DNA of 64,000 bases from Blastocladiella emersonii ATCC 22665. Its lineage: Eukaryota > Fungi > Blastocladiomycota. Below are positions 18,753 to 41,080 of the stretch, one piece after another. The notes beneath the pieces are model-generated. The model did not search any database, was not told where the DNA came from, and saw only the letters and a program-made list of their open reading frames with translations. Both the position numbers and the translations under genes were made by a program. The first letter of the stretch is position 1, and each line of letters opens with the position of its first letter. The stretch lies in NCBI GenBank assembly GCA_025594325.1, contig JANHCV010000013.1, positions 930,001 to 994,000 on the forward strand. Reading direction: 5' to 3'.

Positions 18753-18778
18753 TGTCGTATCCCTTAAGGGATACGACA
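18753..18778. repeat. perfect 26-bp terminal palindrome TGTCGTATCCCTTAAGGGATACGACA
   Basis: TGTCGTATCCCTT is the exact reverse complement of AAGGGATACGACA; the same palindrome is at 41055-41080. Confidence 0.98.
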
Positions 18779-19256
18779 TGGGCTGACCCACTACCACTCG
18801 GGCTGACCAATTGCTTACCCCGAGCAGTCGGCGGGCAGTCACTTGGGCTAACCACGTGAGACCCAGTTGCTTACCCCGGGTGGTTAATAATATGTCGTAT
18901 GCCATATGTCGCATTCCCTTAGGGAACACGACACGCGGGCGGAGGCCGAAGGCCGGAGGGAGAGGGGTGGCGGGCGGGTCACGTGGATCACGTGCAGATG
19001 AACGGCGCGTGGACCCGATCTGCGAGTCGATCTGCGAGTCGATCTGCGAGTCGATCTGCGGGCAAGTCCCCGAGCCCGTCCCTGACCAACCGCTCGGGCT
19101 GACCATTGCTTACCCCGGGTGGTGGGCGGGGGGCGGCGAGCGAAGCGAGACAAAGAGCAGCGCAGCTGCGGCTACCCACTGTGCGGATCCCTGGTCTGGT
19201 CCCTGAGCACAGCTGAGAGTCCATCTGTGAGCAGTCAACGATCAGTCTGTGAGCCA

Positions 19257-19619
19257 GTCCCTGACCACCTGCCGCAAGCAACAGCTATGAACCTATCACC
19301 GCGCCGCATCCCCTTGTCCATCATTTTGCCCCATGGTGTATAAGTACATAGACGGTTTTGATGGACAAGGGGATGTGCCACGGTGATAGGTCTCTGGTTT
19401 GGGAGTGAAGGGAGAGAGCGAATAGCTGCGAGCTGTCTGAGAGTTGATCTGTGGAAGTCCGAGAGCTGTCCCTGACCACCTGCCGCGAGCAACAGCTATG
19501 AACCTATCACCGCGCCGCATCCCCTTGTCCATCATTTTGCCCCATGGTGTATAAGTACATAGACGGTTTTGATGGACAAGGGGATGTGCCACGGTGATAG
19601 GTCTCTGGTTTGGGAGTGA
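19257..19619. repeat. 211-bp-period direct repeat inside the TIR, each copy containing a 99-nt imperfect hairpin
   Basis: CCTATCACCG-N5-CATCCCCTTGTCCATC...GATGGACAAGGGGATG-N5-CGGTGATAGG at 19292-19390 and 19503-19601; mirrored in the right TIR. Confidence 0.9.
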
Positions 19620-20229
19620 GAGAGAAGGGCGAACAGCAGCGAACAGCAGTTGACTCGTTTACGGAACAGGTCGGGGAGCAGGTCATGGACACAGGCGGTC
19701 GTGGGGTGTCTTAGAGCTTGTCGTCGTCCAGGTTCAGCGTAAAGGTCGGGGACTGCTGCGGGGTGGTTGTCCAGGTGTCTGTCCATGGACAGGTCAGTGG
19801 ACACTTGTCCAGCTTGCCAGTGAGCTGTGTGGCTGGTGAACTGACCAACTGTGTGGCTGGTGAACTGACCAACGCGTGGCTGGGGAATTAGCGCTATCCC
19901 TTGCCCTATAAGAACCCCCCACCGCCCCCCTCCCCAGACCTGCTCTCCACCACCCACAACAGAAGCCATGACACAGATTCACTGCCTCAAGCCCCTGCTG
20001 AGCGCGTATAGGCCATCTTGCTGCAATGAGCCCAACGCACTCACAGGACTTTTGGTATGGGTATCATGGCCAACGTTGTGGGTGGTCAAAGTGTACGGCA
20101 CAAGACGTACAGGGCTATCTGCTGTGCACGGCAATAGACTCGGTTGCTTGTGTCAGGACATGGAGCGCTGCGCGGACTTGCTACCCGTGCAGTTGCACCA
20201 TGGACCTTTCTTCCTTTATCCTGTTGGCG

Positions 20230-20606
20230 CTGTGTGGTCAATGAGCTTTGGTCTGTGCTGGTGTCCTGGTGTGGTCAATGAGCTTTGGTCTGCGTTGGTG
20301 TCCTGGTGTGTTGGTGTCCTGGTGTCCTGGTGTGTTGGTGTCCTGGTGTCCTGGTGTCCTGGTGTCCTGGTGTCCTGGTGTCCTGGTGTCCTGGTGTCCT
20401 GGTGTCCTGGTGTCCTGGTGTCCTGGTGTCCTGGTGTGCCGGTGTACTGTGTGGTCGATGAGCTTTGGTCTGTGCTGGTGTACTGTGTGGTTGATGAGCT
20501 TTGGTCTGTGCCGGTGTACTGTGTGGTCGATGAGCTTTGGTCTGTGCCGGTGTACTGTGTGGTTGATGAGCTTTGGTCTGTGCCGGTGTACTGTGTGGTT
20601 GATGAG
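20230..20606. repeat. tandem array: about 18 x 8-bp GGTGTCCT-type units, then about 4.5 x 36-bp units
   Basis: Read directly: GGTGTCCT/GGTGTGTT units at 20297-20440; GGTGTACTGTGTGGTYGATGAGCTTTGGTCTGTGCY units at 20441-20606. Confidence 0.95.
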
Positions 20607-21070
20607 TACTTGGCAATGATGCCCTGCTCCACACTGGAACTCCGATTAGTGGTTGGCCACCATGAAAGGAGACTCCAGTGTGGGGCAGTCTGGGGGCTGC
20701 CTGGCCAGCAGCTCCTGGACGGGGGCGGAGCACCCATTGCTACGTTATGTCATTGCGGGGGGCTGTGGTCACGTGACCAGTTGCCATGGACTGTTTGGTG
20801 GTGATGATGGAAGCGCGTTCAACGCACAAGTCTTTGACTTCTTCTCTGAGCCTTCAGTAATCCATGCGCCTGCATCCTTGACATCACTCCCCTGCCTCAG
20901 CCGCCGTGCGACCACTTGGAGCCACCTCGGTGGGTCTATGACAACCGGCTCCTGCTGGCCACGGTAGTTTACCCATGCTGTTGTCACATGTACACGTACC
21001 GCCGTAACAACTACTAAGTCTTTGGTCTTCAGTCTTCAAGGTAGCATTCACTGTTAACTTGAAGGGGCGC

Positions 21071-21217
21071 TTACTCAAAGCGCACAGTGTACACAACTTT
21101 GACACCGGGTGGACTTGTGTCTCGGATGGCCATGTACTGGCTCAGGGACTTTGGCCCTGGTGTGGTTGGAGAAGGTGTACGGGGTGGTGACAAAGTGCAG
21201 CCAGTAGCCTGGTTCAT
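21071..21217 (-). CDS. putative viral micro-ORF (48 aa, P/T/S-rich), not in the ORF track
   Basis: MNQATGCTLSPPRTPSPTTPGPKSLSQYMAIRDTSPPGVKVVYTVRFE*, preceded by TATTTTCC...TAGTAAG, like other viral genes. Confidence 0.35.
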   Translation of the reverse strand: MNQATGCTLSPPRTPSPTTPGPKSLSQYMAIRDTSPPGVKVVYTVRFE

Positions 21218-21273
21218 GGTGTTGTCTCTTACTACGTCGTTGGGAAAATAAACACATTGCGCTGACGCGTTGC

Positions 21274-21384
21274 TTAGTCTACGGCGCGAATATCTTTGAG
21301 CGCGCTGGAGGTGTACCCAATGATGGCAAGGTTGGCCACAAGGCTGACCACGTTGGCTGCAAGGACAAGTGTCTCAAGGATCAT
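21274..21384 (-). CDS. putative viral small hydrophobic protein (36 aa), not in the ORF track
   Basis: MILETLVLAANVVSLVANLAIIGYTSSALKDIRAVD*, preceded by TTTTTTGCTGTGTACATGTAAG-ATG. Confidence 0.45.
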   Translation of the reverse strand: MILETLVLAANVVSLVANLAIIGYTSSALKDIRAVD

Positions 21385-21414: not shown

Positions 21415-22161
21415 TCAGATGAACGCAAGCTCGATGTAGAAGGGTTGCCCCAGGAAGTCAACAGAGCGCAGGTTCTCGTCCACCACGTCAACGTCAATGG
21501 AGTCTATCAGCTGCGGTGTGCCTCGCGCGTCAAAGCGAAAGTAGTTGCTCATGTGTGGCCGGTGCTCGAACCAGCTCCCAAACGGCTGTGTGACATGGAT
21601 ACTGCACAGCACACCATTGTCCTGCGGGTACGCCAAGAACATGTTGTCCGCAAGGCAGCTGCCCAGGTTGCGCGAGTACACATGCAGCAGGTTGATGGGA
21701 GAGATGTTCACCAGAGACATCCCGTACTGGACCTTGCTGTAGCCGTAGCTGCCGACAAAGCCCATGTGCGTGTTCAGCGCAGCGGCCCCTGTCCCAACAG
21801 TGAAGTCGCAGGTGTCATTGGCAATGCGCATCTTCTGTGTGGTGGAGTCAACCTGCACGTCCCATGTGCCCTGCCACAGAAGACTTGACGGCGCGTTGTT
21901 GAGCAGGCTCTTGAGCGTTGACGTGAACGTCTCAACTGTGTAGTTGCCATCAGGGACAGTGATGGTCCCTGGGAAGGTCACACTGCCACGGCTCTGTGTC
22001 AGGTACACCTTGTTGGCCTTGGAGTTGACCACGTGCCAGCTGTTACAGAGGTACGCCAAGTTGACCTTGACGCCGCTCACAGACACGGCCCGCGGGAGGT
22101 ACAGCACACCGTTCTTGAGGTCGCGGCTGCAGATGGTCAGTGTCTTGTAGGAGCCAGTCAT
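21415..22161 (-). CDS. minor capsid (penton-like) protein
   Basis: 248 aa with LTICSRD, NSWHVVN, ITVPDGNYT and IDVDVVDENLRSVDFLG motifs typical of Polinton/PLV minor capsids; adjacent to MCP. Confidence 0.8.
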   Translation of the reverse strand: MTGSYKTLTICSRDLKNGVLYLPRAVSVSGVKVNLAYLCNSWHVVNSKANKVYLTQSRGSVTFPGTITVPDGNYTVETFTSTLKSLLNNAPSSLLWQGTWDVQVDSTTQKMRIANDTCDFTVGTGAAALNTHMGFVGSYGYSKVQYGMSLVNISPINLLHVYSRNLGSCLADNMFLAYPQDNGVLCSIHVTQPFGSWFEHRPHMSNYFRFDARGTPQLIDSIDVDVVDENLRSVDFLGQPFYIELAFI

Positions 22162-22182: not shown

Positions 22183-22449
22183 TTATTGCACTGCCGTGCC
22201 TGTGTTGTTGTCGTCTGTCTCAAAGATCTCACTTGTTGGCCAGTTGTACCATGTGTGGATGTCCTGGGCCAGGTCAGCGCCCTTGGACACAAGCTGTGCC
22301 ACAGACGACACGGCAGGGTTGTGCGAGCGCTCAAAGAACTTGGACACGGTCTTGACTCCCTTGAGCACAGTGGGGAGATGCTTGTTCACAAAGCTGCCTA
22401 CCTGGCCGAGCACGTTGCTGAAGTTGGTCCACAGGTTCCTGAAGATCAT
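22183..22449 (-). CDS. small viral protein with N-terminal amphipathic helix (88 aa)
   Basis: Lies between minor capsid and MCP, has the shared upstream motif, and starts IFRNLWTNFSNVLGQVGSFVNKHL. Confidence 0.6.
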   Translation of the reverse strand: MIFRNLWTNFSNVLGQVGSFVNKHLPTVLKGVKTVSKFFERSHNPAVSSVAQLVSKGADLAQDIHTWYNWPTSEIFETDDNNTGTAVQ

Positions 22450-22488: not shown

Positions 22489-23709
22489 TTACTTGTAGAG
22501 GTTGACCTCGCCGGTTGGGAGGAACTTGTACACAATGTCAACACCAACAAAGGCGTCAACACGCTGGTTTGGGACAGTGTTTGAGGTGAGGATGATCTGC
22601 ATGTCCACGGCCTGGCTCTTGCAAGACTTGTCTCCACTGACAATGGTACGGGACAACTCAAGGTTGTGGCCAATGCAGAAGGTCCCCTCAGCTGGCACAT
22701 TGTACTTGTCCACTGACATGCCTGCACCAATGACATGGCCATGGAAGGCGTTGGACAGCTCTACAAAGGCCTCTGAAGCGTAGTCGTCACAGCAGACAGG
22801 CTTCTGGGGGAAGAGACGGCCACTAATGCTGAACTGGTATGTTGCAATGGTCTTGGCACGGAGGAACGAGTCCTTGGCATTGTCATTGAGCACTGCGTTG
22901 TTGCAGAACAACACCAGCACGTCCTTTTGTGACGCACTGCAGTCAGAGACGTTGAGCATAGAGTTGGGCACCGAGTAGTTGAGGGAGTGGTGGTTGTACG
23001 TTGTGCCGTAGAGCTTGAGACCCTGCTTCTTGAAGGCAGCGTCCATGACGGCGATCTGCTGGTCATTGAGCTTGATCAGGTCAGACACGATGCACACGTC
23101 CTTGACACTGTAGCTTGGGATGGCATTGTTCTTGACCACACAGGCATCTGCGCCAGGAGCCAGGGTGAACTTGACATGGATACCACCAAGGTACTTCATG
23201 GGCAGATGCTTCTGGTTGGACAGCAGTGCAGACTTGATGGGCAGCATGTACCGGTGAAGTCCAGATGACACAGCAAAGCGGTCAGCCCCAGTGGCAAAGT
23301 AACCCTGGGCCACGCCAAGGCATGAGTCCTTGAGGTGCTGTGGGACAGTCACGTCAGCCTCAATGCGCTGACGCAGGTTGAAGTAGGGAAGCTCTTCAAG
23401 CAGGGCTCCACCCGCGCTGTAGACTTGCACACGGTCAATGATGCTGAAGATGCCATCACAGAAGGCGACGTTGGCGTCTGCAGTCTTGGCACTGAACTGC
23501 AGGAACGTGCAGTGGGTGTCCATCATGTCATTGCGCGGGGGCAGGAGGACACTGATAGTGTTGCCAGGTGCAGACTCAGGGCCGCCCTGTGCAGTGAACT
23601 GGACAGTCTGACGCTCGGCATACACAGACTCCTTGGGCAGGTTAAACGTCATCTCTGGCGGCAGAGTCTTTGACAGGACCTGGGAGAACTGGGCATTGGT
23701 GGAAGACAT
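22489..23709 (-). CDS. major capsid protein (double jelly-roll, Polinton-like virus type)
   Basis: 406 aa, intact. ISVLLPPRNDMMD..CTFLQF, FSIIDRVQVYSAGGALLEEL..FN, YQFSISGRLFPQKP and FCIGHNLE match the PLV MCP pattern; clustered with minor capsid and ATPase. Confidence 0.88.
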   Translation of the reverse strand: MSSTNAQFSQVLSKTLPPEMTFNLPKESVYAERQTVQFTAQGGPESAPGNTISVLLPPRNDMMDTHCTFLQFSAKTADANVAFCDGIFSIIDRVQVYSAGGALLEELPYFNLRQRIEADVTVPQHLKDSCLGVAQGYFATGADRFAVSSGLHRYMLPIKSALLSNQKHLPMKYLGGIHVKFTLAPGADACVVKNNAIPSYSVKDVCIVSDLIKLNDQQIAVMDAAFKKQGLKLYGTTYNHHSLNYSVPNSMLNVSDCSASQKDVLVLFCNNAVLNDNAKDSFLRAKTIATYQFSISGRLFPQKPVCCDDYASEAFVELSNAFHGHVIGAGMSVDKYNVPAEGTFCIGHNLELSRTIVSGDKSCKSQAVDMQIILTSNTVPNQRVDAFVGVDIVYKFLPTGEVNLYK

Positions 23710-24312
23710 GGCGTGTGTTACTGAAGCACAAGAAAAAAAGTCGCTGCGTCACTTAGTCCTTGATGATCCACTCACTGAAGCTGTCTACCAGCCTGTACTT
23801 GGGACTGTTCTGGTTGTTGACACCAAGGAAGCGTTGCTTGGTGTTGCCCTCTGAGCGGGTGTCAAAGAGCTGCTCAATGATCACCTCAAACTCCTTGAGC
23901 AAGAACTGCGACCCGATCTCCTTGTGCAGTGTCTTGACCTCTGTCTTGTCGTAGAGGGGGTACACGACGCTGTAGCTGCAGTTGATGCGCAGTGTCTTGG
24001 GCAGAGCACACCAGCGCTGCATGCCAATGATGCAGCTGATCTTGAGGTGTTGCAAGTTGCACAGGAAGTTGGTCAGCGTCTTGTGGGACAGCAGCTTGAG
24101 GCCCAGCACGTCGTCAATGATCAGCAGCTGGTCCTGCAGTGCCTTCTTGCCCTGGTCTTCAAAGGTCTTGGTCAGGTCTTTGTGCATCTTGAGCAGCGTG
24201 GGGATGAACAGCTCTGGGTCCGTGACAATGCACGATGGCTTCACCTTGAGCCGGTTTGGGTTGTGCTCCTGTGGATCAAGTACATTGTGCTGCTTCTTGG
24301 GTGGTCGCAGGA

Positions 24313-24486
24313 TGTAAGGTGCCGAGGGGGAGGGTCTTGTGCCACGAGGAATGACTAGCCGGATAATGAAGGATTGTATCACGAATGACAAGAGAGAGGG
24401 AGAGCGAGGGCAACGCTCGGCTTATGAGGGACTGCGCCACCAGCCCGCGCCACCAGCCCAAGCCGTTGGATCACTGAACCGTGACA
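24313..24486 (-). repeat. 3' LTR
   Basis: Direct repeat of 29460-29633 with 3 differences, all CpG transitions. Confidence 0.97.
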
Positions 24487-24506
24487 CTATCTCCCCTTCC
24501 CCCTCC
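24487..24506 (-). promoter_or_regulatory. polypurine tract
   Basis: GGAGGGGGAAGGGGAGATAG on the element strand, immediately 5' of the 3' LTR. Confidence 0.85.
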
Positions 24507-27500
24507 GCGGGTCGGGTTTTGACGGGTTCTGCGCGTGGAACTCGGCGAGCAGCTCGAGGTGCTTGAGGTTCGCGTACGGCTCCCAGGTGTTGTCGTCCTC
24601 GGGGCAGCCGTGCCACTTGAGCAGGTACTCGACGCTGCGGCCGACCTTGCGCGCGTCGCGGATCGCCTCGACTGTCCACTCCTCGTGCCCGTTGACGGCG
24701 TACGGCGTTGGCGGCGGCAGCGCGCGGCCCGGGAACGCCTCCTCGTCGTGCTCGTCGATCGGCTTGATGAGCGAGACGTGGAACACGGGATGGACGCGCG
24801 CCATGGTCGGCGGCAGCTCAAGCTCGACGGCCGATTTCCGGATGAGGCGCACGATCTTGAGCGGCTCCGTGTACTTGGGCCCGAGCTTGGCCTTGGGCAC
24901 GTTGACGCGCAGGTTCTTGGTGCTCAGCAGCACCATGTCGCCGACCTTGTAGTCGGGGCCCTCGCGGCGGCGGCGGTCAGCGTGCTTCTTGTACAGCTCC
25001 TTGGCGCGCTCGACCTTCTCGCGCAGCTTGCCCTGGACGTCGGCAATGCGCTTGGCCAGCGCGGCGGCTGACGGGACCCGATCCGACCGAACTGGCGCGG
25101 CCGAGAGCCGCTGGTCAAACGCGTAGTTGGCCTTGAACGGCGACATGCCCGTTGACTCGTTGACCGTGTTGTTGATGGCCATCTCGGCGTACCGCAGCAG
25201 CTCGGCCCAGTTTGACTGGTCCTCGTTGGCGAACATGCGCAGGTACACCTCGAGGGTCTGGTTCATGCGCTTGGTCTGCCCGTCGGTCTGCGGGTGGTAC
25301 GCCGTCAAGAGCTTGGCCTTGATCTCAAGCGACTTGCACATGGCCGACCAGAACCGCGACGTGGACTGCGACCCGCGGTCCGAGACGATGTCGTCGGGCA
25401 GCCCGTGCGGCCGCACCACGTGCTCAATGAAGGCGTCGGCGGTCGTGGCGGCCGTTGGGAGCGCGGCGAGCGGGATGAAGTGCGTCATCTTGGAGAACCG
25501 ATCGACGACGACCATGATGCAGGTGTGACCCTTGCTGCGCGGCAGGTCCGTGATGAAGTCCATGGAGATCGACGACCATGGCCGCGGCGGCGTGGGCAGC
25601 GGCTGCAGCTCGCCGTCAGGCCGGTGGCGCGGCACCTTGGCCCGCGCGCAGGTGAGGCACGACTTGACAAACCGCTCGATCACCTTGCGCATCCCGGGCC
25701 ACCAGTACGAGCGCGACACCTTCTCGATGGTGCGCTGGACGCCGAAATGACCGGCTACACGCGTCGCGTGCGCCTCCTTGATCACCCGGGTGCGCGCGAC
25801 GCCCAACGGTACGTACAGCCGGTCGTCTCGCCAAACGAAGCCGTCGAGGTCCATGGTGAGCGACGGGTGCTTGCCCGGGTTCCGCTGCATCGACTGCGCG
25901 AGCTCGTCCTCCGCCAGGCCGTCCCGAATCGCGGCGAGCACGTCGTCGCCCTGCGTGCCCGCGACGAGCGGCGCGCTGGCCGCGGCCGTGGCGGCCACCG
26001 TGAGCGCCGACGCGGGAACGACAGCGCGGCCGAGCATCGGGTTGTCAAACAGCTCGTAGTCGGCGCGGCGCGACAGCGCGTCGGCGCGCCCGTTGATTGC
26101 GCCGGGCCGGTACGTGAACCGGAACGAAAACCGCTCAAGGAACAGTGCCCACCGCGCGTGCCGCTGCGACTCGACCGTCATGGTGCGAAAGTGCTCAAGG
26201 TTCTTGTGGTCCGTGTACACCTCGACCGGGTGCTGCGCGCCCTCAAGGTGGTGGCGCCAGATCTCGAACGCGACCTTGATGGCGAGCAGCTCCTTATCCA
26301 AGATGGGATAATTCAGCTCCGCCGCCTTGAGCGCGCGCGAGTGGAACGCGACCGGCCGCAGCGTGCCCTCGTTGTCGACCTGCGACAGGACGCACCCAAT
26401 GGCGAAGTTGGACGCGTCGGCCTCGACAATGAACTGTTTTGAGGGGTCGGGGTGCGCGAGGAACTGGTCGGACGCGAACCGCGTCTTGATGGCCGCAAAG
26501 GCCGCCGCCTCGGTGTCGCCCCACCGCCACGGCGTGTCCTTCTGCGTAAGACGGGTGAGCGGGATGGTCAGTTCCGAGAACTCGGGGATGAAGCGGCGGT
26601 AGTAGTTGGCGAGGCTCAGGAACGCCTGCACCTCCTTGACCGTCCGTGGCGCGGGCCACTCGGTCACGGCGCGGACCTTGGCCGGGTCCATCTCGACGCC
26701 CTCGGTGGTCAGGATGTGGCCGAGGTACTCGACGCGCGTCACGTCGAATTCGCACTTCTCGAGCTTGACGTACAGCTTGTTGTCGGCGAGCCGCTGCAGC
26801 ACCTCCTTGACGAGCGCCGTGTGCTCTTCGGGGTCCTCGCTGAAGATGAGGATGTCGTCCAGGTACACGAGAACGCCGCGGCGGTCGAGCAGGTCGCGGA
26901 ACACGTCGTTGACAAACGCCTGGAACGCGGCCGGCGCGTTGGTCAGCCCGAACGGCATCACCATCCATTCATAATGTCCGTAGCGCGTGCGGAACGCCGT
27001 CTTCCACTCGTTGCCCTCGCGGATGCGGACCAGGTTGTACGCGCCGCGCAGGTCGAACTTGGTGAAGATGCGCGCGCCCTGCACTTGGTTCATGAGCTCC
27101 GCGATGAGCGGCAGCGCGTAGCGGTTCTTGACCGTCAGCGCGTTGAGGCGGCGGTAGTCCACACACATGCGGCGCGACCCGTCCTTCTTGGGCACGAACA
27201 TGATCGGCGCGCCGGCTGGCGACCGCGATGGGCGGATGAAGCCGCGCGCGAGGTTCTCGTCGATGGTCTTGCGCAGCTCCTCGAGTTCGGGCTGCGACAG
27301 GGCGTAGACGGGCAGGAACGGCACCTTGGCGCCCTCGACGAGCTCGATCTCGCAGTCGTACGGTCGGTGCGGCGGGAGCGCGGACGCCGCGGCGGCATCG
27401 AAGACGTGCGCCCACTTGAGGTACTTGGCGGGCAGCACGCGCTTCGGCGCCGCGTCATCTGGCGCCTCGGGCGGGCCGTGTGCCTCGTCCCACGCGAGCG

Positions 27501-29404: not shown

Positions 29405-29448
29405 TTTTGCCGTCGTGGAAGAAATCACCGCTCGGAGGGGGTTTTACG

Positions 29449-29457
29449 GTGATACAA
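29449..29457 (-). promoter_or_regulatory. candidate self-priming primer-binding site
   Basis: TTGTATCAC lies 2 nt downstream of the 5' LTR and is perfectly complementary to GTGATACAA inside the LTR (29521-29529); no TGG tRNA-type PBS. Confidence 0.65.
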
Positions 29458-29459
29458 AG

Positions 29460-29633
29460 TGTAAGGTGCCGAGGGGGAGGGTCTTGTGCCACAAGGAATG
29501 ACTAGCCGGATAATGAAGGATTGTATCACGAATGACAAGAGAGAGGGAGAGCGAGGGCAACGCTCGGCTTATGAGGGACTGCGCCACCAGCCCGCGCCAC
29601 CAGCCCGAGCCGTCGGATCACTGAACCGTGACA
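29460..29633 (-). repeat. 5' LTR
   Basis: 174 bp, TGTCAC...CTTACA on the element strand. Confidence 0.97.
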
Positions 29634-29904
29634 CAGGATCGCCTGTGAGGCAATGTACTCGTACTTGTCGTCAGCGTGGAAGGTGGGGTTGAAGACCCAG
29701 ATGTTGTCAAAGCGTCCCTTGTAGAACTGCGGGAAGCACACAAGGTTGGCGATCAGTGTTGACTTGCCCTGACCCTTGGCGCCAATGACGTTCATGGTGA
29801 AGGGGTGCTTGGGGATGGGCGAAGGCTGGTTGTCATTGTTCCTGGTGAAGCCGTTGTCAATGGCCACAATGTCGTACATCTTACTGTAACCCAAGACAAA
29901 AGGT

Positions 29905-30105: not shown

Positions 30106-30159
30106 CTCTGTCTTCTTACTACTACCCTCGGAATTGTTCTTGGGCGCGTCTGCAAGCTG

Positions 30160-31661: not shown

Positions 31662-31804
31662 GGTACACTTTGCACCTGTCTGTGGTACACTTTGCACTGT
31701 CAAGGGTACACTTTGTACCTGTCTGTGGTACACTTTGTACCGTCAAGGGTACACTTTGCACCTGTCTGTGGTAAACTTTGTACCGTCAAGGGTACACTTT
31801 GTAC
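31662..31804. repeat. 7 copies of GGTACACTTTGYAC with alternating 8- and 7-bp spacers
   Basis: Read directly; lies between divergently oriented viral gene blocks. Confidence 0.95.
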
Positions 31805-32058: not shown

Positions 32059-33999
32059 ATGGTCAAGAATATATTCAACGTGTCTACCAACGTGTCACCA
32101 ACAGTGTCGGCCACAGGTGTCTCAGACGTGTCCACGGCATATGTTGATGGTGCCATCAGTGCTGTCTATGCCACAGTTGGTGCACCTGTCGCTGGGCCTG
32201 GACTCAGCGTGTCAGGGACAACTGTCTCTGCCAAGGTCAATGACCAGACACTGGGTGTTGGTCCAAGCGGTCTCTATGTCAAGTCAATCAGTACGGCCCA
32301 GCTCCTGCCAGCCAGCGTCACAGCAGACAAGCTTGTGAGTGTCACAGCTGCACAGGTCACAGGTAAGCTTGTTGATGCACAGCTGGACACTGTGTCAGCA
32401 TCCAAGGTCACTGGTGTGCTCAGTGCGTCCAACCTTCCAGCGCTTGGGACAACGTCCATTGCAGATGGCTCTGTGACAGACGCCAAGGTTGCCTCAGTGT
32501 CCAGGTCCAAGCTGGTTCTGGGGACCGTCAACACAGCAGCTCTTGCAGACACCTCCATGACAGACGCCAAGGTTGTCTCAGTGTCTGGGTCCAAGCTGGT
32601 TGCAGGAAGTGTCTCAACACCTGCTCTTGCAGACGCCTCAGTGACAGATGCCAAGGTTGCGTCTGTGTCCGGGTCCAAGCTGGTTCCAGGGACTGTCAGC
32701 ACAGCAGCACTTGCAGACACCGCAATAACAGATGTCAAGGTTGCCTCAGTGTCTGGGTCCAAGCTGGTTCCAGGGACTGTCAGCACAGCTGCCCTTGCAG
32801 ACGCTGCTGTCACCAACGCCAAGCTGGCCACTGGTATAGACGGTGCAAAGCTCAACGTGTCATCTGTGGGAACAGCACACCTTGCAGCAGGGTCAGTCAC
32901 CGATGCCAAGGTCACAGATGTGTCTGCCACCAAGCTGACAGGGACGCTTGATCCTGCACGCATTGCAGACAGTTCACTGACCAATGCCAAGCTGGCCACT
33001 GGGATAGACGCTGCCAAGTTGTCTGGGACCATTGACCTTGCACGACTGCCTGACGTGTCCAGCAAGGTGTCAAGTGTCAACGGAGCCATTGTCACTGGGA
33101 CGCTCCCCCAGTCCACCCTTGGACTTGGCAGTGTCTTTACATTTGCCAGTACTGTGGACAGCACATCGACGTCCACTGGGGCAGTCACTGTGGCAGGTGG
33201 CCTTGGTGTGGGCAAGCAGCTCACTGTGCCAAACGTCCTTGTCCGGAACACAGTCAGTGCAAATGTGGTCTTTGACTCTGCTGCCAACACACTCACATAC
33301 ATTGACTTCAAGCAAGCAGGTGTCCTGAAGAGCAACCTGGCATGCACTGCACTGGGCACCATTGAGATCGCTTCAGCAACTAATGGTGGCGTGTCCTTGG
33401 CTGCAGGTGGAGGGAATGTTGTCATTGGCTCAGCGACGCTTGGCACAGAAAAGCTCCATGTCAAAGGCACTGGTCGCTTCACAGGGCAGCTCACCCTTGA
33501 CCTCGCTCCAGTGGCAGGCACCGATGCAGCAAACAAGGCATACGTTGACTCGCGGTCTGGCACAACCCGGTACATCGCTCAGGCCAAGCACCGCTCTACA
33601 AATGGAGTGACCACGGGCGGCAAGATCATTGGCGGCACAGCATCAACGGGCCCAGCCACCTTTGCATTCCAGTCCACGGCGGGTGCGTTCATGTCTGTGA
33701 TCAATGGATGCGTCAAACCCCCTGTCAGTGGCTACTACCTTGTCCATGCAAAGGGCTATTACGCAAACGGCACGCTCCCTGGAGCCCACACTGTGAACTT
33801 TGCGCTGTACAATATGACGGACATGATTGCAGTGTCACTTGTCACCGGGTGCCGCGCTGAAGGCAACGTCCAGTTCCTTCAGTTCTCGAGCATTGAGTAC
33901 CTTGACGCGGCCAAGAGCTACTCTTTCATCTGGATCCCATCGGTCGCAGTTGCCAACGACTGCCAGGTCATCATTCAAAGCCACTGGACCCTGCTCTAA
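32059..33999 (+). CDS. fibre / tail-fibre-like protein (646 aa)
   Basis: Repeated ~25-aa units (ALADTSVTDAKVASVSGSKLVPGTV), phage-fibre-like EKLHVKGTGRF and PVAGTDAANKAYVD, and a C-terminal beta-rich head (PPVSGYYLV). Confidence 0.7.
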   Translation: MVKNIFNVSTNVSPTVSATGVSDVSTAYVDGAISAVYATVGAPVAGPGLSVSGTTVSAKVNDQTLGVGPSGLYVKSISTAQLLPASVTADKLVSVTAAQVTGKLVDAQLDTVSASKVTGVLSASNLPALGTTSIADGSVTDAKVASVSRSKLVLGTVNTAALADTSMTDAKVVSVSGSKLVAGSVSTPALADASVTDAKVASVSGSKLVPGTVSTAALADTAITDVKVASVSGSKLVPGTVSTAALADAAVTNAKLATGIDGAKLNVSSVGTAHLAAGSVTDAKVTDVSATKLTGTLDPARIADSSLTNAKLATGIDAAKLSGTIDLARLPDVSSKVSSVNGAIVTGTLPQSTLGLGSVFTFASTVDSTSTSTGAVTVAGGLGVGKQLTVPNVLVRNTVSANVVFDSAANTLTYIDFKQAGVLKSNLACTALGTIEIASATNGGVSLAAGGGNVVIGSATLGTEKLHVKGTGRFTGQLTLDLAPVAGTDAANKAYVDSRSGTTRYIAQAKHRSTNGVTTGGKIIGGTASTGPATFAFQSTAGAFMSVINGCVKPPVSGYYLVHAKGYYANGTLPGAHTVNFALYNMTDMIAVSLVTGCRAEGNVQFLQFSSIEYLDAAKSYSFIWIPSVAVANDCQVIIQSHWTLL

Positions 34000-35108
34000 A
34001 GCCCGCGGTCCCACTTTTCTTGGACTCGGACTAGGACGCGCCTGACCCGGGTCGAGGGCTCCCTTGGCGTGACCGGGGTGCGCGCAACAGGGAGCCTTGG
34101 AAGACTTGGGGCCATGCGTGGCCTTGTCGGCGGGTCCTGGGTCACTGTGACTGGCTGGACGTCGCTTCGAGGGTAGAAGCCCTTGAGGCCTTGGACCTTG
34201 TAGCTCGGATTGCTCACACCCAACCCCTTGCGCACAACCTGGACCTGGCTCACAGTTGTCAACCAGACCAGCTTCCCCTTGGCCTCCATGGCAGTCTTGT
34301 ACGGCTCGCGGACTCGGACCTGGGTCCCTACCTTCAACAACGCGCTCAGAGGGTCGCCCTCGGGCTTGCCCTTGGCAGCTCGGATCTCCTTGAGCTTTTG
34401 CTTGGCCGTTTCGCGGGGCATGTCATGGAACTCGTTGGGCGCCCTGCCCGTGGCCCTCGACTTGCTGCTGTTGATCACAGATTCAATGGTCTCGAGGTGC
34501 TTGGGCCAGTCGTTGTTGCCCGGGATGGACAGCCACGGTGTGAGCATCCGGCAGATGGTCCCGTTCATACGCTCAACAACACCTTGACCGTATGGCACTC
34601 CTGCCTTGCCCTTGATGTGCTTGGCCTCAGTCCCGGCCTCTATGCCAAAGAACTCGGTCCCATTGTCCGTCTGGATCGTGGCAGGTGCAAGGCTGTGCTT
34701 GGCGACCACGCTGGACCATGCTTCCCGCGTCTTGTCCTTGGTCTTGATGGGTTGGAGGTAGACGCGGCGGCTCGCCAGGTCGACACACGTGAGAATGTAA
34801 CAGAAGCCCTTGTACGTACCATTTTCGCCCATGTCAATGAGGTCGAGCTGAAAGTTGCGGCCAGGACTTGTTGAGTTGATGCTTCGAATGTCTCGGCGCT
34901 TCTGAGGTGCGCGTTTGTACTGCTGCCACACAGACTGTTTGCCGAGCCATCTCTCAAGCTGGGCGTGGTAGATGTGCTTCCCTGTGTTCTCTCTGGACAC
35001 AATGTCAAAGAGCCGACGGATGCCAACACCTACGTGGCCATGCTTGTAGTACAAGTCTGTCAGGAATGCTTGCTGTGCGTCTGTGAGCGGCTCTTTGTGG
35101 GCATACAT
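33996..35108 (-). CDS. Maverick/Polinton-type retroviral-like (rve) integrase, 370 aa
   Basis: Intact DDE triad: FQLDLID, IQTDNGTEF, QGVVERMNGTI. N-terminal LTDLYYKHG..GIRRL and C-terminal LKVGTQVRV as in Maverick c-integrases. Confidence 0.93.
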   Translation of the reverse strand: MYAHKEPLTDAQQAFLTDLYYKHGHVGVGIRRLFDIVSRENTGKHIYHAQLERWLGKQSVWQQYKRAPQKRRDIRSINSTSPGRNFQLDLIDMGENGTYKGFCYILTCVDLASRRVYLQPIKTKDKTREAWSSVVAKHSLAPATIQTDNGTEFFGIEAGTEAKHIKGKAGVPYGQGVVERMNGTICRMLTPWLSIPGNNDWPKHLETIESVINSSKSRATGRAPNEFHDMPRETAKQKLKEIRAAKGKPEGDPLSALLKVGTQVRVREPYKTAMEAKGKLVWLTTVSQVQVVRKGLGVSNPSYKVQGLKGFYPRSDVQPVTVTQDPPTRPRMAPSLPRLPVARTPVTPREPSTRVRRVLVRVQEKWDRGL

Positions 35109-35136: not shown

Positions 35137-36273
35137 TTACTGAGGCGTCATGTAGTAGGTCAGGGCAACAGGGACGCTGTGACCCATCTCGTGTGCGCGG
35201 TCAGCAATAGCTTGCTGCGCGGCAAAGTTCTCGCTGGTGGAGATACGGCGGATCACTGCCACGCCGCCATCCTCAAAGCCGACCGTCTTTGCAGCCCGAC
35301 TAATCGACGTACACCAGGTGCTGCTAACCCTCTTGCGGAGCGTGGTGTCCTTGAGCTCCTCGAGGGTGTAGTTGTTGAAGACAAAGTCATGACCTTCGGC
35401 GAGACGCTGGGCGAGGATACGCTTGAGAGCGGCGGCGACCTTGGGCTCACTAACTGTGTGCGAGAAGTTGTAGCCACAGCCCTCTGTCTTGACAATGACA
35501 TCGCCGGCCAGAATCTGGGTCTCTGGGTCGTAGTACGGGTACCCAGTGGTTGGCTTTGTGGTCAGGAACGCAGGGTCGGAGCGCACCACACTCACAACTT
35601 GGAGGTACAGACGCAGGAGCCCTGTGCCCAAGCCCTTTGCATCAACAATAGCGGCGCAAATGGCGTCACGGCTTGGGAGCGCACCAGACTCGAGTTCCTT
35701 GCGCGCGTCGCAGAAGTCGGCAGCGTCCTGCTTCTTGGCCTCTGTGTACTTGGCCCCGAGTTCGGTCCACCCGTTCCAGGTGCAGTACTTGGCCAGGGCC
35801 TTGAGCGTCTCAACCTGCAGCCCCTGCTCGCCCTTGGACGCGCGGTACGCTGCCACAGCTTTGGACACGGCGTCAACGTCTTCAATGTCCATGCCCGACT
35901 TGGCAAAGGCACAGAGCACGCGGGATGTCTTGGCCTTGTCCGTGTTGCTCAGCTTGGCCAGTTCCCCGTGCTTGTTCTGAACACGCGCATTGACGCACGC
36001 CGCAATGGATTCCTCGGTCATCTGCGCGTACTTGACCTGGGGATCAGTGTCCATGGGTTTGCCAGACTCGTTGGCGGGGGTGTGATTGGAACTGTGATTG
36101 CAGTCACGTGACACTGCAGCCAGCGCGGCGAGGCTGGTCTCAATTCCCTTGAGCCGCTCATCAAAGGATGCCAGCAGCGGCTTGATACCATCGAGCACTT
36201 GGTGCACTACGTCGGCGGCAATGTGCTGAGCAACAACCTTGGACACCTGGGACACGAGCGCTTCGAGAGACAT
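35137..36273 (-). CDS. tyrosine recombinase-family protein (378 aa)
   Basis: C-terminal catalytic signature: VVRSD (R), VKTEG (K), AVIRRIS (R), AHEMGHSVPVALTYY (H, with Y eight and nine residues downstream). Confidence 0.75.
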   Translation of the reverse strand: MSLEALVSQVSKVVAQHIAADVVHQVLDGIKPLLASFDERLKGIETSLAALAAVSRDCNHSSNHTPANESGKPMDTDPQVKYAQMTEESIAACVNARVQNKHGELAKLSNTDKAKTSRVLCAFAKSGMDIEDVDAVSKAVAAYRASKGEQGLQVETLKALAKYCTWNGWTELGAKYTEAKKQDAADFCDARKELESGALPSRDAICAAIVDAKGLGTGLLRLYLQVVSVVRSDPAFLTTKPTTGYPYYDPETQILAGDVIVKTEGCGYNFSHTVSEPKVAAALKRILAQRLAEGHDFVFNNYTLEELKDTTLRKRVSSTWCTSISRAAKTVGFEDGGVAVIRRISTSENFAAQQAIADRAHEMGHSVPVALTYYMTPQ

Positions 36274-36362: not shown

Positions 36363-36857
36363 ATGTGCGACAACGATGACTCGCCCAGTCCTCTTGGACG
36401 TCTGCTGCTGGACATCCACAACTGCACAGGCAAGGTGGTCGACCTGAGCCAGATGAAAGCCTTGACCATGGACGCTGTGCGCAAGCAATGGCTGGGTGAC
36501 AACGAGTCTCTGACAGAGGCCATGAAGACGCTGCGTGTTGCTACTGCCCGTCTTGCTGTGTTGCAGCAAGTGAGAGGGAAGCCTGCAAAGACACAGGAGG
36601 TGTATGGTGAAGGGCCCATTTGCGACCTCCTGTGCTACTATGGCTCAAAGAAGGACCAGGACGCTGTCGTTGACTTTGCCCAGCTTGAGCAAGACTACCC
36701 TCTGGACACGTCAGAGTGGGATGCCATCAAGAGAGAGTACCATGACTGGCTTGTCCGACAGTCCATGATGCGTCTTGCTGAGCTGTGTGTCCGGACAGAC
36801 CGCAAGAAGAAGAAGAAGGTCAAGTTTGAGAGCGACTCGGACTACAGCAGCGCGTAA
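36363..36857 (+). CDS. viral hypothetical protein (164 aa)
   Basis: ORF with viral codon usage; ends in a basic KKKKK stretch (possible NLS). Confidence 0.6.
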   Translation: MCDNDDSPSPLGRLLLDIHNCTGKVVDLSQMKALTMDAVRKQWLGDNESLTEAMKTLRVATARLAVLQQVRGKPAKTQEVYGEGPICDLLCYYGSKKDQDAVVDFAQLEQDYPLDTSEWDAIKREYHDWLVRQSMMRLAELCVRTDRKKKKKVKFESDSDYSSA

Positions 36858-36871
36858 ACGCACCATGGACA

Positions 36872-37021
36872 CAGGCCAACAACACAATGCACAGGACAGG
36901 CCAAGGACACAATGCACAGGGCAGGCCAACGACACAATGCACAGGGCAGGCCAACAACACAATGCACAGGGCAGGCCAACGACACAATGCACAGGGCAGG
37001 CCAACGACACAATGAACAGGG
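36872..37021. repeat. 6 x 25-bp tandem repeat CAGGCCAACRACACAATGCACAGGG
   Basis: Read directly; intergenic, upstream of the primase-helicase. Confidence 0.95.
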
Positions 37022-37159
37022 TCTACAGACCACCCACCTTACCTTTGCACAGGACAACTGCAATGGTAACTGAACACAGAGCTGGGGCTGTAGCGATACT
37101 GCCAAACGCATTAAACGCGCGCTCCCCCTCACCTTTTTCTGCTGCCTCATCCTAACAAG

Positions 37160-40122
37160 ATGGTCTACAAGCTTGCAAGCACGTCCTTTGGTCTCCAGTG
37201 GTACTCGGGCAAGGACGGTGACGACAAGGACATGGGCCCTCAGCGCTACGTGCTGTCGACGCTCAAGGACAACAAGCTTGTGGTCAAGCGTCTGGTCAAC
37301 AAAGGCGTCAATCAAACGGCAAAGACAAGGAGGCCCACCACTTTGCCAAGGTCAAGCCCGAGAAGCTGGTGGAGATCCTCAACAGGAACCACTGCATCCA
37401 GGAGATGGTCCACCCGGACCGTCTGTCCAAGGTGTACTTTGACGTGGACTTTAACCGCGACTGTGGCGACGTGACGCTGGACGAGGTCAAAGCGGTGATC
37501 ATGGACCAGTTCCCCAGCGCTAATCTCCAGATCTGTGGCTACGAGACTGACCAGAAGAAGTCGTGGCACATTGTCCTCAGCAACTACACGGCTACATTCA
37601 AGGAGCTCGAGCTCGTCAAGCTGTTCTGCATGCAGTACTCTGCCCTTGGCTTTGACGCCAAGGTGTACACGGCGAACCGGTTCATGAAGTGCATCAACCA
37701 GTCCAAGCCCAAGAAGACGCCAGGCGTGTACATTGAAGGTTCACGCGAGGTGTCCAAGCACCTGATCCAGGTCAACTTTGACGACAACTGTGTGTCTGTG
37801 TCCACGCTGTCCTTTGACGCGTTGATGTCAGACAAGGCCAAGGCCGCCGTGGCCAAGGGTCGCCGTGTTGACTTTACCACGGACATTCCCGAGTTCAAGG
37901 ACGTCACCATTGACCCTGACTTCTTCTTCTACGACGCGGCGCCGCTGCAGATCCTGCACAACCTCCCAGTGAGCCCGGACAATGCGTTTAGCAACGACGT
38001 GACGTGGCGGATCATGACCTGGGCACTCCGCCGTGGTCTGACCTTTGCCAAGTTCTGGGCGTGGACATCACAGCAGGACGACTCGGTGCAGCGCATGCAC
38101 AAGTACCAGCAGCGGTGGGCCGAGATTGAGGGCAACAACAAGTACCAGGTCCGCAACGGGTTCATGGAGGGCATCTTCTACGCCCACTTCCCAAGCGCTC
38201 TCAAGTCCAAGGCCCTGAAGCTGTTCAACGCGTCTCTTTGTGTCCCGGCCACCAAAACCAGCCCTAACCAGTGGCTGACCTGCGACGACATCACGCCCGC
38301 CAAGTTCAACGTGCTGGCCACTGGCATGGGATCCAGCAAGACGGGTGCGGTGTGCTCGTACATTGCCAAGTTCCCCGACGCCCGTGTGGTCTGGATCACG
38401 CCGCGCATCACTCTGACCCACAACACGGAGGGTTGACTGGTAAAAGAAGGCCTCGGCTTTGTCAACTACCGCAATGTCAAGAACAAGAAGGCCATGGGCT
38501 CGCACAAGCGCCTTGTGATCTCGCCGTGCTCCCTGCACTACATCACAGAGCCCTACGACATGGTCGTGGTGGACAAGTCGGAGACCGTGCTGCAAATGTT
38601 CCTGGATGACAAGCTGCACACAACGACGGGCAAGAACAACCTTCTCGCCAACTTGCTCGCCTTCAAGACGCTGTGCGAGAATGGCCGTGGTATCTTCATG
38701 GACGCGTTTGTCACTAACCTGACCATGGACGTCCTGCGCTCCTTTGAGGTGGCACCAACCATTCCCAACCAGCTCTGTGGTATGGTCGAGTTCCGCAGTA
38801 AGATCGAGGTCATCAAGAACACGCTGCCCAACACCTTTAAACCGCGCAAGATGACGTACATTGCCAGTAAGCCGCACCTTGAGCTCAGCGCCGAGGACAT
38901 CATGGAGCGGAACATTATCGCCGACCTGCGCGCTGGCAAGAAGCTGTACGTGTTCATCCCCCGCAAGCACGACAACAACTCCATCTGGGCGGTGCAGAAG
39001 TTTGGCGAGTACCTTGAGAAGGTCATGGACTGGAAGATTGGCAACCAGATCAAGGTGTACCACAGCGGGCGCCCCAAACACGAGAACAAGGAACTCGAGA
39101 ACCCTGACACCGCGTGGGGCTTGGACAATGTCCGCGTGGTCATCTTGAACCTCAAGATCACTGTGGGCGTCAACTTCTCGACGGAGAAGGTCTTCCACAA
39201 GGTCTACGCGCGCTACGAGTCCTGGTTCTCTGCGCGCAACTTCATCCAAGGCGTGTTCCGTGTCCGCCACCCCATCGACAACAAGATTGTGTTCATGACG
39301 TGCAAGGGCAATCGCAGCAAGTACCTCAAGCGCACCAAGGTCATCAACGTGGCCCCTGTCGGCGAGCTGCACCAGGCGATTGTCAAGAATGCGATGCTTG
39401 AGCGCGAGATGGCCGCTGTGTCCGCTCGCTACAAGGTCTTTGACTCGTTCCGCAAGCTTGCAGGGGTTGTCATTGACAACTGCCCCGACTACTACTACGA
39501 AGTCGACCCCAAGGTCAAGGTCGTGCTCGAGTCTGGCTGGTCCTTTGAGTGGAAGAACATTGAGCCGGCCAAGGACGACACAATGCAGGCGTACAGTGAC
39601 AAGGTCCTTGACGCGCCTGACTGGAAGACGTGGCTGTCGATCCGCAAGTCCTTCTTCATGTCGACGTTCAAGGGGCTGAGCGAGAAGCAGATGAGCGTCA
39701 TCTGGGACAACAACTCGGAGGACTTTATGGAGACGATCAAGCACTTTTACACCAAGGACACGGACCACGTCCTGCACACCCTCCTCGCGCACAACAAGAT
39801 GGATCTCCGCACAGCCACCAAGTTCAACGTCCAGGCTGTGGTCCCTGCTGCGTTTGGCAACGACATCAAGCGCTGGTACAAGCAGCTGACCCGCAAGGCC
39901 TGTGGCAACGCGACTCTACTCTCCAGCCTGCTCAACAAATACTTTGGCAAGAAGATTGTCCGAGTCGACCCCAAGCAGCGTCAAGTGATGATCGACTACA
40001 AGCCCTACCCCAACTTGTCATGGACAGACAACTACGAGCTCTTCAAGATGTACATCGACTGGACAACCACCCCGCAGCAGTCCCTGACCTTTACGCTGAA
40101 CCTGGACGACGACAAGCTCTAA
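37160..40122 (+). pseudogene. PrimPol (AEP)-SF2 helicase fusion, disrupted by a frameshift near 37310 and an in-frame TGA at 38434-38436
   Basis: AEP motifs YFDVD, KKSWH and FDAKVY..NRFMK; helicase motifs TGMGSSKT, WITPRITL, VVDKSE, TVGVNF and FIQGVFRVR (origin-binding-protein-like). ORFs 37369 and 38494 are in the same frame. Confidence 0.85.
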
Positions 40123-41080
40123 GACACCCCACGACCGCCTGTGTCCATGACCTGCTCCCCGACCTGTTCCGTAAACGAGTCAACTGCTGTTCGCTGCTGT
40201 TCGCCCTTCTCTCTCACTCCCAAACCAGAGACCTATCACCGTGGCACATCCCCTTGTCCATCAAAACCGTCTATGTACTTATACACCATGGGGCAAAATG
40301 ATGGACAAGGGGATGCGGCGCGGTGATAGGTTCATAGCTGTTGCTCGCGGCAGGTGGTCAGGGACAGCTCTCGGACTTCCACAGATCAACTCTCAGACAG
40401 CTCGCAGCTATTCGCTCTCTCCCTTCACTCCCAAACCAGAGACCTATCACCGTGGCACATCCCCTTGTCCATCAAAACCGTCTATGTACTTATACACCAT
40501 GGGGCAAAATGATGGACAAGGGGATGCGGCGCGGTGATAGGTTCATAGCTGTTGCTTGCGGCAGGTGGTCAGGGACTGGCTCACAGACTGATCGTTGACT
40601 GCTCACAGATGGACTCTCAGCTGTGCTCAGGGACCAGACCAGGGATCCGCACAGTGGGTAGCCGCAGCTGCGCTGCTCTTTGTCTCGCTTCGCTCGCCGC
40701 CCCCCGCCCACCACCCGGGGTAAGCAATGGTCAGCCCGAGCGGTTGGTCAGGGACGGGCTCGGGGACTTGCCCGCAGATCGACTCGCAGATCGACTCGCA
40801 GATCGACTCGCAGATCGGGTCCACGCGCCGTTCATCTGCACGTGATCCACGTGACCCGCCCGCCACCCCTCTCCCTCCGGCCTTCGGCCTCCGCCCGCGT
40901 GTCGTGTTCCCTAAGGGAATGCGACATATGGCATACGACATATTATTAACCACCCGGGGTAAGCAACTGGGTCTCACGTGGTTAGCCCAAGTGACTGCCC
41001 GCCGACTGCTCGGGGTAAGCAATTGGTCAGCCCGAGTGGTAGTGGGTCAGCCCATGTCGTATCCCTTAAGGGATACGACA
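40059..41080 (-). repeat. right terminal inverted repeat (1022 bp), ending in the 26-bp palindrome at 41055-41080
   Basis: Reverse complement of 18753-19774; includes the last ~20 codons of the primase-helicase. Confidence 0.97.

Follow-up and report, generated by a model that had tools for sequence, protein, structure and literature searches.

Organization of the element

Positions 18753–41080 of the window (the whole 64,000-nucleotide stretch of Blastocladiella emersonii DNA analyzed here) are occupied by a copy of a Polinton-like virus (PLV) that is integrated and in decay. The element is 17,002 bp long once a nested gypsy insert is subtracted, inside the 14–40 kb range of PLVs. It is bound by two terminal inverted repeats (TIRs) of 1,022 nt each (18753–19774, + strand, and 40059–41080, − strand), which differ at a single position (TIR position 996). 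The termini of the element are TG and CA, and both are flanked by the 5-bp target site duplication (TSD) CAAGG (18748–18752 and 41081–41085, + strand). The left TIR contains internal repeats and a duplication with a spacing of 211 bp and is followed by a repeat-rich stretch of 8-nt and 36-nt tandem units (19775–21270) that contains no assignable gene. An earlier note on this DNA, made from the sequence alone, had described the TIRs, the TG...CA ends and the 5-bp TSD, all of which are confirmed, and had interpreted the element as an endogenous PLV of a zoosporic fungus. Both the identity and the host type are supported; the element has the ends, a predicted double-jelly-roll (DJR) capsid protein and an A32-type packaging ATPase.

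The insert is a 5.3-kb Ty3/gypsy chromovirus (24313–29633, − strand; TSD CAGGA), which is foreign to the virus and consists of gag (28299–29405), pol (24487–28239) and two 174-nt LTRs (24313–24486 and 29460–29633). It interrupts the ATPase gene. Because the ATPase and replicase genes are both interrupted, this copy is unable to package or replicate alone. With one mismatch in 1,022 nt, the two TIRs are closer to each other than are the LTRs of the chromovirus nested between them, which have three mismatches in 174 nt (Fisher p = 0.011).

Virion proteins

The major capsid protein (MCP, 406 residues long) is encoded by an open frame at 22489–23709 (− strand) that carries 10 private substitutions. 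An alignment of 7 close sequences gave a model of low quality (pLDDT of 33.8), while a 112-row alignment gave the final model (pLDDT of 92.8, pTM of 0.89). Its predicted fold is the double jelly roll that the earlier note required of an MCP, and it is most similar to NCLDV capsid proteins (PBCV-1: Z of 28.3, rmsd of 3.3 over 352 residues, Foldseek E of 5.5e-18), with the virophage capsids of Sputnik (Z of 19.7) and mavirus (Z of 18.6) ranking below them. The PDB, queried by sequence with the profile of the MCP, the minor capsid protein (mCP), the tyrosine recombinase (YR) described below and its profile, yielded nothing useful.

The product of 21415–22161 (− strand, 248 residues) is probably the minor capsid (penton) protein, judging by its position and by a by-eye motif likeness to PLV proteins in the supplement of PMC7805220. 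It had no match in the profile library searches, so this assignment is weaker than the earlier note implied. Between the two capsid genes lies an 88-residue ORF (22183–22449, − strand), the N-terminus of which is conserved in other copies. Its N-terminal half is amphipathic (hydrophobic moment of up to 0.62 versus a 99th percentile of 0.53), and the product is possibly a membrane-lytic virion protein, presumably resembling adenovirus pVI. A second MCP gene beside the first was ruled out: the 303-residue members of the corresponding cluster are gene models in which the 88-residue ORF and the mCP gene are merged.

The packaging ATPase, also listed in the earlier note, is of the A32 type and is split by the chromovirus into a C-terminal part with the Walker B motif (23753–24307, − strand; Pox_A32 E of 8e-7, over the cut-off) and an N-terminal part with the Walker A motif (29634–29879, − strand; Pox_A32 E of 0.016). 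The fiber gene, which that note lists as well, is on the + strand (32059–33999, with 32059 as the likely start). It contains 84-nt repeats, and its product matches a PHROG tail fiber family (E of 7e-8). Two further ORFs have no assignment. One is a Gln/Asn-rich ORF of 487 residues (30160–31623, − strand), the longest unassigned ORF in the element, which continues in frame for 84 codons past its stop (29908–31623 in total). The other encodes 164 residues (36363–36857, + strand).

Nine of the 11 gene starts, including that of the fiber gene, are preceded by a common start-proximal motif that has no matches in 46,993 bp of flanking and gypsy DNA. This enrichment is inflated because the motif was derived from those same upstream regions. 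The motif, which does not appear in the earlier note, precedes, among others, a 36-residue hydrophobic ORF (21274–21384, − strand).

Integrase, probable recombinase and replicase

The element carries a free-standing rve-type DDE integrase (33996–35108, − strand, 370 residues). The match to Pfam rve (E of 6e-7) is at 30.1 bits, slightly below the cut-off of 32.6, and the D-D-E motifs are present, which supports the Maverick-type integrase of the earlier note. Next to it is a probable tyrosine recombinase (35137–36273, − strand, 378 residues), identified by the order and spacing of its catalytic motifs. R231, K262, R343, H365 and Y374 form an R-K-(H)xxR-H-Y set that is spaced as in lambda Int and conserved in all seven full-length rows, with the first His replaced by Val or Gln. 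The distance from R to H is 22, the same as in lambda Int, versus 33 in TelN. Repeated searches of the YR gave no profile or library match, and tblastn of the YR and of the primase parts against phages gave no match either. The hhalign scores of 0.2% against lambda Int and 0.3% against protelomerases come from a test that is insensitive because it missed lambda Int as well as the protelomerases. For six of the seven YR representatives in B. emersonii, a capsid gene model lies within 2–6 locus tags. The earlier claim that both integrase types reside in one element stands, provided that the second protein is a recombinase.

The replicase gene (37160–40122, + strand), the 3′ end of which enters the right TIR, encodes a fusion of an AEP-type primase, so typed by a single DxD motif, and an SF2 (CyRepA1-like) helicase. 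Two lesions disrupt it, a frameshift near 37.3 kb and an internal stop codon (38434–38436). The PrimPol-helicase of the earlier note is therefore a broken gene, in which the helicase half alone has a library match (CyRepA1, E of 9e-9; its 34.8 bits compare with a cut-off of 200). AEP-SF2 replicases have been described as a “sizable minority” of polisuviruses (10.64898/2026.10.13.758929).

In agreement with the earlier note, no family match to protein-primed PolB (pPolB) or an adenain-type protease was found in 19 scanned ORFs (15 of them the element’s own), with the 19775–21270 stretch as a place where a decayed gene could hide. The protease search returned only sub-threshold matches (Peptidase_M64, E of 0.03; Peptidase_C12, E of 0.09). 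HUH endonuclease and late transcription factors had no match in Pfam, which may miss them. PLVs usually lack both pPolB and protease: absence of the protease has been described as typical of them, and Tlr1 of Tetrahymena pairs rve with no pPolB (PMC4642659).

Terminal palindromes

Each tip of the element is a perfect 26-bp palindrome (18753–18778 and 41055–41080), flush with the TSD and capable of forming a hairpin. It is the longest perfect palindrome of the window, in which 0.002 palindromes of this length are expected by chance. Degenerate copies of its half-site are found further inside the TIR at 18893, 18907 and 18921 (2–3 mismatches each), where they and a degenerate second copy of the palindrome span 18893–18933. 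Of 45 contigs from one sequencing run, 11 show the same terminus joined to different flanking DNA, and one of these 11 is possibly the right end of this copy; the four runs behind the comparison represent one sample. Across the compared contigs, positions 18753–18791 have zero variant rows in a table that leaves variants close to contig ends unlisted. The terminal palindromes were absent from the earlier note.

Copies and relatives

The PLV family is multi-copy in B. emersonii: 9 of its contigs carry at least 17 gene models of MCP length, of which 11 were read. The MCP frames are open and 79–94% identical across subfamilies. Phylogenetic trees of the MCP were built from 148 and 48 rows, which exclude fragments and represent a minority of the 494 matches, with support given as bipartition values. 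The MCP belongs to a distinct clade of 15 of the 48 sequences (SH-aLRT of 100) that includes AMAG_17996 of Allomyces macrogynus (26% identity); among its closest relatives are metagenome proteins and this Allomyces MCP, in one clade. Allomyces and Blastocladiella belong to the same fungal order. Look-alikes of the Spizellomyces punctatus PLV group, assigned by eye, form a separate, fully supported clade. As for a possible place in Aquintoviricetes, the remote matches include a protein of Tetraselmis striata (E of 7.6e-11). Pattern scans of related loci gave 0/163 and 0/143 for relatives on viral contigs and 0/171 on metagenome contigs.

PLVs have been reported in both S. punctatus and A. macrogynus (PMC7805220). 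The A. macrogynus PLV, which is presumably the source of AMAG_17996, was reported with its MCP, ATPase and helicase (Bellas and Sommaruga 2021, PMC7805220); its ends, integrases and full map, which are not described in the accessible part of that paper, are given here for the B. emersonii element. The S. punctatus group is likewise chytrid-associated and integrated and has a remotely homologous MCP, but has members with pPolB and often chitinase, neither of which was found here, and falls into the separate MCP clade (by eye, not by HMM).

Maverick/Polinton elements (Polintoviricetes) share the TIRs, TSD, rve, DJR capsid and A32 ATPase but carry pPolB and a cysteine protease, neither of which was found here. 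Virophages (Virophaviricetes) carry a protease, which has no match here, and their capsids are the lower-ranking structural matches of the MCP. Gezel-14T/PgVV and other aquintovirus-type PLVs have the MCP, A32 ATPase, fiber, primase-helicase and TIRs in common with this element, carry the mCP and YR that are probable here, and also lack the protease, but they have TVpol-SF3 and no rve, whereas this element has AEP-SF2 and rve. Tlr1 likewise has rve, ATPase, both capsid proteins (the minor one being probable here) and no polymerase, but its helicase is of SF1, and the accessible text mentions no YR (PMC4642659). In cryptophyte PLVs, the presence of TSDs goes with rve and not with YR.

A close parallel to the ends is found in Halocafeteria seosinensis, where PLV subtype 4 and virophage subtypes 1, 2, 5 and 6 also have RVE and where palindromes next to TSDs accompany non-pPolB replicases and particular RVE integrases, and for which a 2026 preprint proposed hairpin priming (10.64898/2026.07.28.741278). 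There, however, RVE and YR are combined in virophages and not in PLVs, the palindrome shown is 52 nt long versus 26 here, and the host is a protist and not a fungus.

Novelty is thus below that proposed earlier: fungal PLVs, terminal palindromes with non-pPolB replicases and hairpin priming have all been reported. The proposed distinct lineage of viruses of zoosporic fungi retains its distinct MCP clade, but its novelty was overstated, with fungal PLVs and the Allomyces MCP already known. For a PLV, the combination of a free-standing rve with a probable tyrosine recombinase remains unusual, as does an end-to-end map for the fungal clade. No Blastocladiella–polinton link was present among the literature matches listed; supplements of recent PLV preprints may already include the element or its clade.

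Proposed life cycle

The palindromic ends, the retroviral-type integrase and the likely second recombinase together make priming from folded-back ends likely. The element is probably a decaying copy of a multi-copy blastocladialean PLV family that would enter the chromosome by means of rve and replicate through fold-back hairpins with no protein primer. The integrase would join CA-3′ ends to the target with a 5-bp stagger. After release, each palindrome would fold back and prime synthesis, with help from the AEP-SF2 protein and from a polymerase of the host or a helper; the complete palindrome, ending in CA, would be restored by nicking and fill-in. The probable recombinase would resolve replication dimers or place the PLV genome inside that of a giant virus acting as helper, and the shared start motif may time expression, possibly via a giant-virus polymerase.

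The palindrome could, however, be merely a symmetric protein-binding site. That the same virus carries it as such a site or as a repair relic, starts replication at a primase-helicase origin within the TIR and uses the recombinase to handle a circular form is possible though doubtful. The half-site copies recur within the TIR as binding sites do, YR is paired with replicases of the AEP and PolA types across polisuviruses, a dual role as origin and as substrate of YR has been suggested for TIRs (PMC11296320), and the authors of the Halocafeteria study offer accidental annealing as an alternative (10.64898/2026.07.28.741278). Against this, each tip has a perfect palindrome that directly abuts the TSD, and the first 39 positions have no listed variant, with the reservation about contig ends given above. 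It is improbable that the recombinase is a protelomerase-like enzyme that cuts the palindrome centers, thereby excising the provirus as a linear genome with hairpin ends, and that also resolves dimers formed in replication. Retroviral-type integrases normally do not excise, which counts for such an enzyme, as does the co-occurrence of palindromic sites with a tyrosine-recombinase-type protein; in phage N15, the inverted-repeat cut site adjoins the protelomerase. But the R-to-H spacing is that of lambda Int and not of TelN, the hhalign score is 0.3% (in the insensitive test), and the R-x-x-Y motif found in four of five aligned protelomerases (W in the fifth), all of them phage enzymes, is missing. 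The literature searched contained no protelomerase–polinton link.

Two other identities concern the element as a whole. A Tlr1-like large DNA transposon with vestigial capsid genes and intragenomic movement only would share the gene set of Tlr1, and TIRs that are more alike than the nested LTRs in a decayed copy fit mobilization in trans. This is very unlikely given that the MCP frames are open across subfamilies, a fiber gene is present, and metagenome proteins and the Allomyces MCP are among the closest relatives, in one clade. A small virus related to Nucleocytoviricota (of the Mriyavirus, Zora or Zephyr type), or else a fragment of a giant virus, in place of an aquintovirus-type PLV, is less credible still and can be given hardly any weight. 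NCLDV capsids are indeed the top structural matches, and look-alikes of the Allomyces MCP in the Atlas are labeled mostly Nucleocytoviricota or Uroviricota. Known PLV MCPs, however, likewise match PBCV-1 and faustovirus first, the sequence relatives include the T. striata protein and, by eye, the MCPs of the S. punctatus group, and the element is 17 kb long, TIR-bound and has no HUH or late-transcription-factor match in Pfam.

The family bears on how PLVs without pPolB replicate and exit the chromosome; in the literature covered, hairpin priming has been proposed from one protist genome. If true, the combination of a free-standing rve with a tyrosine recombinase would run counter to the published pairings, in which DDE goes with pPolB and YR with AEP. 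The wider picture is more speculative and, on balance, unlikely: a Blastocladiales-centered lineage of hairpin-primed, pPolB-less PLVs that would use rve for the fungal chromosome and YR either for a giant-virus helper (Mycodnaviridae) or to cut their own palindromic ends, have promoters read by the helper, and provide a virophage-like defense of the fungus through many proviruses. As an independent case from a fungus, the family combines exactly defined ends and many copies with a host, B. emersonii, that is a culturable model organism. Blastocladiella does not appear in the main text of the report on persistent giant viruses of the host phylum (PMC13533422). Because the phylum carries such viruses, hairpin priming can be tested directly, and so can a virophage-like role in fungi.

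Anatomy of the element

The element at window positions 18753–41080 is a real endogenous polinton-like virus (PLV), an identification that we hold with high confidence. It has a predicted capsid fold, an A32 packaging ATPase, a fibre gene on the + strand, terminal inverted repeats (TIRs) and a target-site duplication (TSD). The TIRs are 1,022 nt long with one mismatch between them, the element starts with TG and finishes with CA, and CAAGG is duplicated at both flanks as a 5-bp TSD; the TIR length, the end dinucleotides and the TSD length are those given in the earlier note. These ends and the 5-bp TSD are the footprint expected of an rve-type enzyme; in cryptophyte PLVs, TSDs are reported to go with rve and not with tyrosine recombinases (PMC12220804). 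The ATPase gene is interrupted by a Ty3/gypsy chromovirus (24313–29633), which has LTRs of 174 nt and is flanked by a separate 5-bp TSD; minus this insertion the element measures 17,002 bp. The chromovirus has open gag and pol frames and a chromodomain, and its LTRs differ at 3/174 sites, all of them CpG. The left junction is identical letter for letter in contigs from three of the four sequencing runs, all made from one sample. The left flank is decayed gypsy pol, and short repeats 79–88% alike lie on both sides (15739–18342 and 41381–41546), which suggests that the element landed within a cluster of old LTR-element pieces.

Inside each TIR, 33-nt inverted repeats 35 nt apart lie within a 211-bp-spaced duplication (19291–19391 and 19502–19602, mirrored in the right TIR) and are a possible origin or hairpin. 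Intergenic tandem arrays with units of 8, 36, 21/22 and 25 nt occupy 20256–20614, 31662–31804 and 36847–37046.

Capsid module

The 406-residue product of the major capsid protein (MCP) ORF (22489–23709) has no sequence match in Pfam, PHROG or PDB; a profile search finds 494 relatives at E ≤ 0.001. Its structure, predicted from a 112-row alignment (pLDDT 92.8, pTM 0.89), matches the capsid proteins of PBCV-1 (Z 28.3, rmsd 3.3 over 352 residues), faustovirus (Z 26.7), Sputnik (19.7) and mavirus (18.6), and Foldseek agrees. The predicted fold is that of a double jelly-roll, as the reading in the earlier note required. The packaging ATPase proposed alongside it scores above the Pox_A32 cut-off. 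The ORF at 21415–22161 is a candidate minor capsid protein, judged by its position and a motif match made by eye. Between the two capsid ORFs sits an 88-residue ORF (22183–22449) with an amphipathic N-terminal half. The host annotation fuses all three through invented introns (public gene models P0005, P0010–P0013, P0011), so the viral genes are hidden as hypothetical proteins.

Integrase, probable recombinase and replicase

The Maverick-type DDE integrase claimed for the element is present as a free-standing rve protein of 370 residues (33996–35108) that carries the D, D and E motifs but lacks an RT domain. The adjacent 378-residue ORF (35137–36273) is probably a tyrosine recombinase (YR): it has no library match, but R231, K262, R343, H365 and Y374 are kept in 7/7 full-length rows, down to 60% identity, and the R–H and H–Y spacings of 22 and 9 are those of lambda Int (33 and 9 in TelN). 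Of the proposed PrimPol-helicase (37160–40122), the SF2 helicase part has a CyRepA1 match (E 9e-9), the fused primase domain is AEP-like by its DxD motif only, and a frameshift and a stop codon disrupt the gene. A family search of the element's ORFs found neither a protein-primed polymerase (pPolB) nor a protease, in line with the earlier note.

Terminal palindromes and a possible replication mechanism

A feature absent from that note is a perfect 26-bp palindrome at each tip, flush with the TSD (chance expectation 0.002 per window), with degenerate copies ~140–180 bp inward. The palindromic terminus is joined to other flanks in 11/45, 7/24, 7/61 and 2/5 contigs of runs X1, X2, X3 and X4, respectively. 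Another perfect palindrome, of 24 bp, is found in the left flank at 1136–1159.

The anatomy of the element, its family of copies and its decay are the demonstrated part of this account. On the mechanism, we consider it reasonably probable that rve integration is combined with palindrome-primed synthesis and with YR resolution or helper targeting. Linear DNA ending in CA would be integrated by rve; the tip palindromes would fold back and prime DNA synthesis, making a terminal protein and pPolB dispensable; nicking and filling in would restore the palindrome as a blunt end that terminates in CA; and the probable YR would resolve dimers or target a helper virus. The YR might instead act as a protelomerase at these ends, but its R–H spacing departs from that of TelN, which makes this role improbable and less likely than the combined mechanism.

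Copies in the host, lineage and decay

Proteins closely related to the MCP (7 clusters, 79–94% identity) and to the YR (7 clusters, 56–97%) are all annotated in Blastocladiella emersonii, where at least 17 gene models of MCP length are spread over 9 contigs. Because 6/7 of its representatives have a capsid gene model within 2–6 locus tags, the YR is a trait of the family. A second B. emersonii MCP subfamily, 30% identical (P0042, H9P43_009120; P0189, H9P43_006855), implies at least two PLV invasions of this species. The closest MCP outside the B. emersonii family is 35% identical, and among 20 outside matches examined, the three that have an organism name are Allomyces macrogynus AMAG_17996, a B. 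emersonii fragment and a Tetraselmis striata protein. A 15-member clade (SH-aLRT 100; FastTree support 0.984 for a matching 16-member group) brings together the two B. emersonii subfamilies, AMAG_17996 and 9 environmental proteins; MCPs of the S. punctatus type, as assigned by eye, form a separate one. The distinct lineage suggested earlier stands as an MCP clade, but it had been glimpsed before in Allomyces.

CpG observed/expected ratios are 0.53–0.69 in the element versus 1.24–1.32 in the flanks, and CpG sites hold 23/29 listed transitions against a background of 0.28 (transitions among 40 of 330 rows); decay looks CpG-driven. Despite the decayed genes, the two TIRs differ less from each other than do the LTRs nested in the element (p 0.011, small counts), which suggests that a copy already damaged was mobilised in trans, that conversion evened out the TIRs or that the assembly homogenised them.

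Comparison with known elements

The element works like a PLV, and the testable PLV features were found except the minor capsid fold, still a candidate. It falls outside the Mavericks/Polintons, strictly defined, and, judged by capsid and protease, is not a virophage. PLVs are described as typically lacking a protease, and Tlr1 as having rve without a polymerase (both PMC4642659); here, too, rve is present and pPolB was not found. AEP–SF2 replicases are given as a sizable minority, and DDE integrases as usually found together with pPolB, YRs together with AEP or PolA (10.64898/2026.10.13.758929); under a replicon-replacement model, mixed gene sets are expected to arise transiently (PMC11296320). 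PLVs have been reported from S. punctatus and A. macrogynus (PMC7805220), A32 ATPases from numerous chytrids (10.64898/2026.06.19.733378), and pPolB-type and giant-virus relics from fungi (PMC8502044, PMC13215967, PMC7017919); a 2023 protist survey is described as excluding fungi (PMC10120064). Blastocladiomycota are reportedly infected by Mycodnaviridae, five with polinton-like integrases (PMC13533422). In the literature searched, no fungal PLV was found for which the full architecture, palindromic tips or a free-standing rve beside a probable YR had been described; preprint supplements may already contain the clade.

Start motif and neighbouring genes

A second feature absent from the earlier note is a start motif, in which a run of T and then (G/C)T(T)AA stand right before the ATG, at 9/11 gene starts examined. 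The pattern, defined post hoc, has 0 matches in 46,993 bp of flank plus gypsy, and 200 Markov controls average 0.245. It may resemble poxvirus late promoters. PgVV and its helper virus are reported to have a promoter motif in common (10.1101/2022.07.28.501842).

Outside the element lie two pairs of paralogous repeat-protein genes (11396–12901 with 62383–63768, and 47141–48919 with 51294–52520); by eye, one pair looks ankyrin-like and the other leucine-rich-repeat-like.
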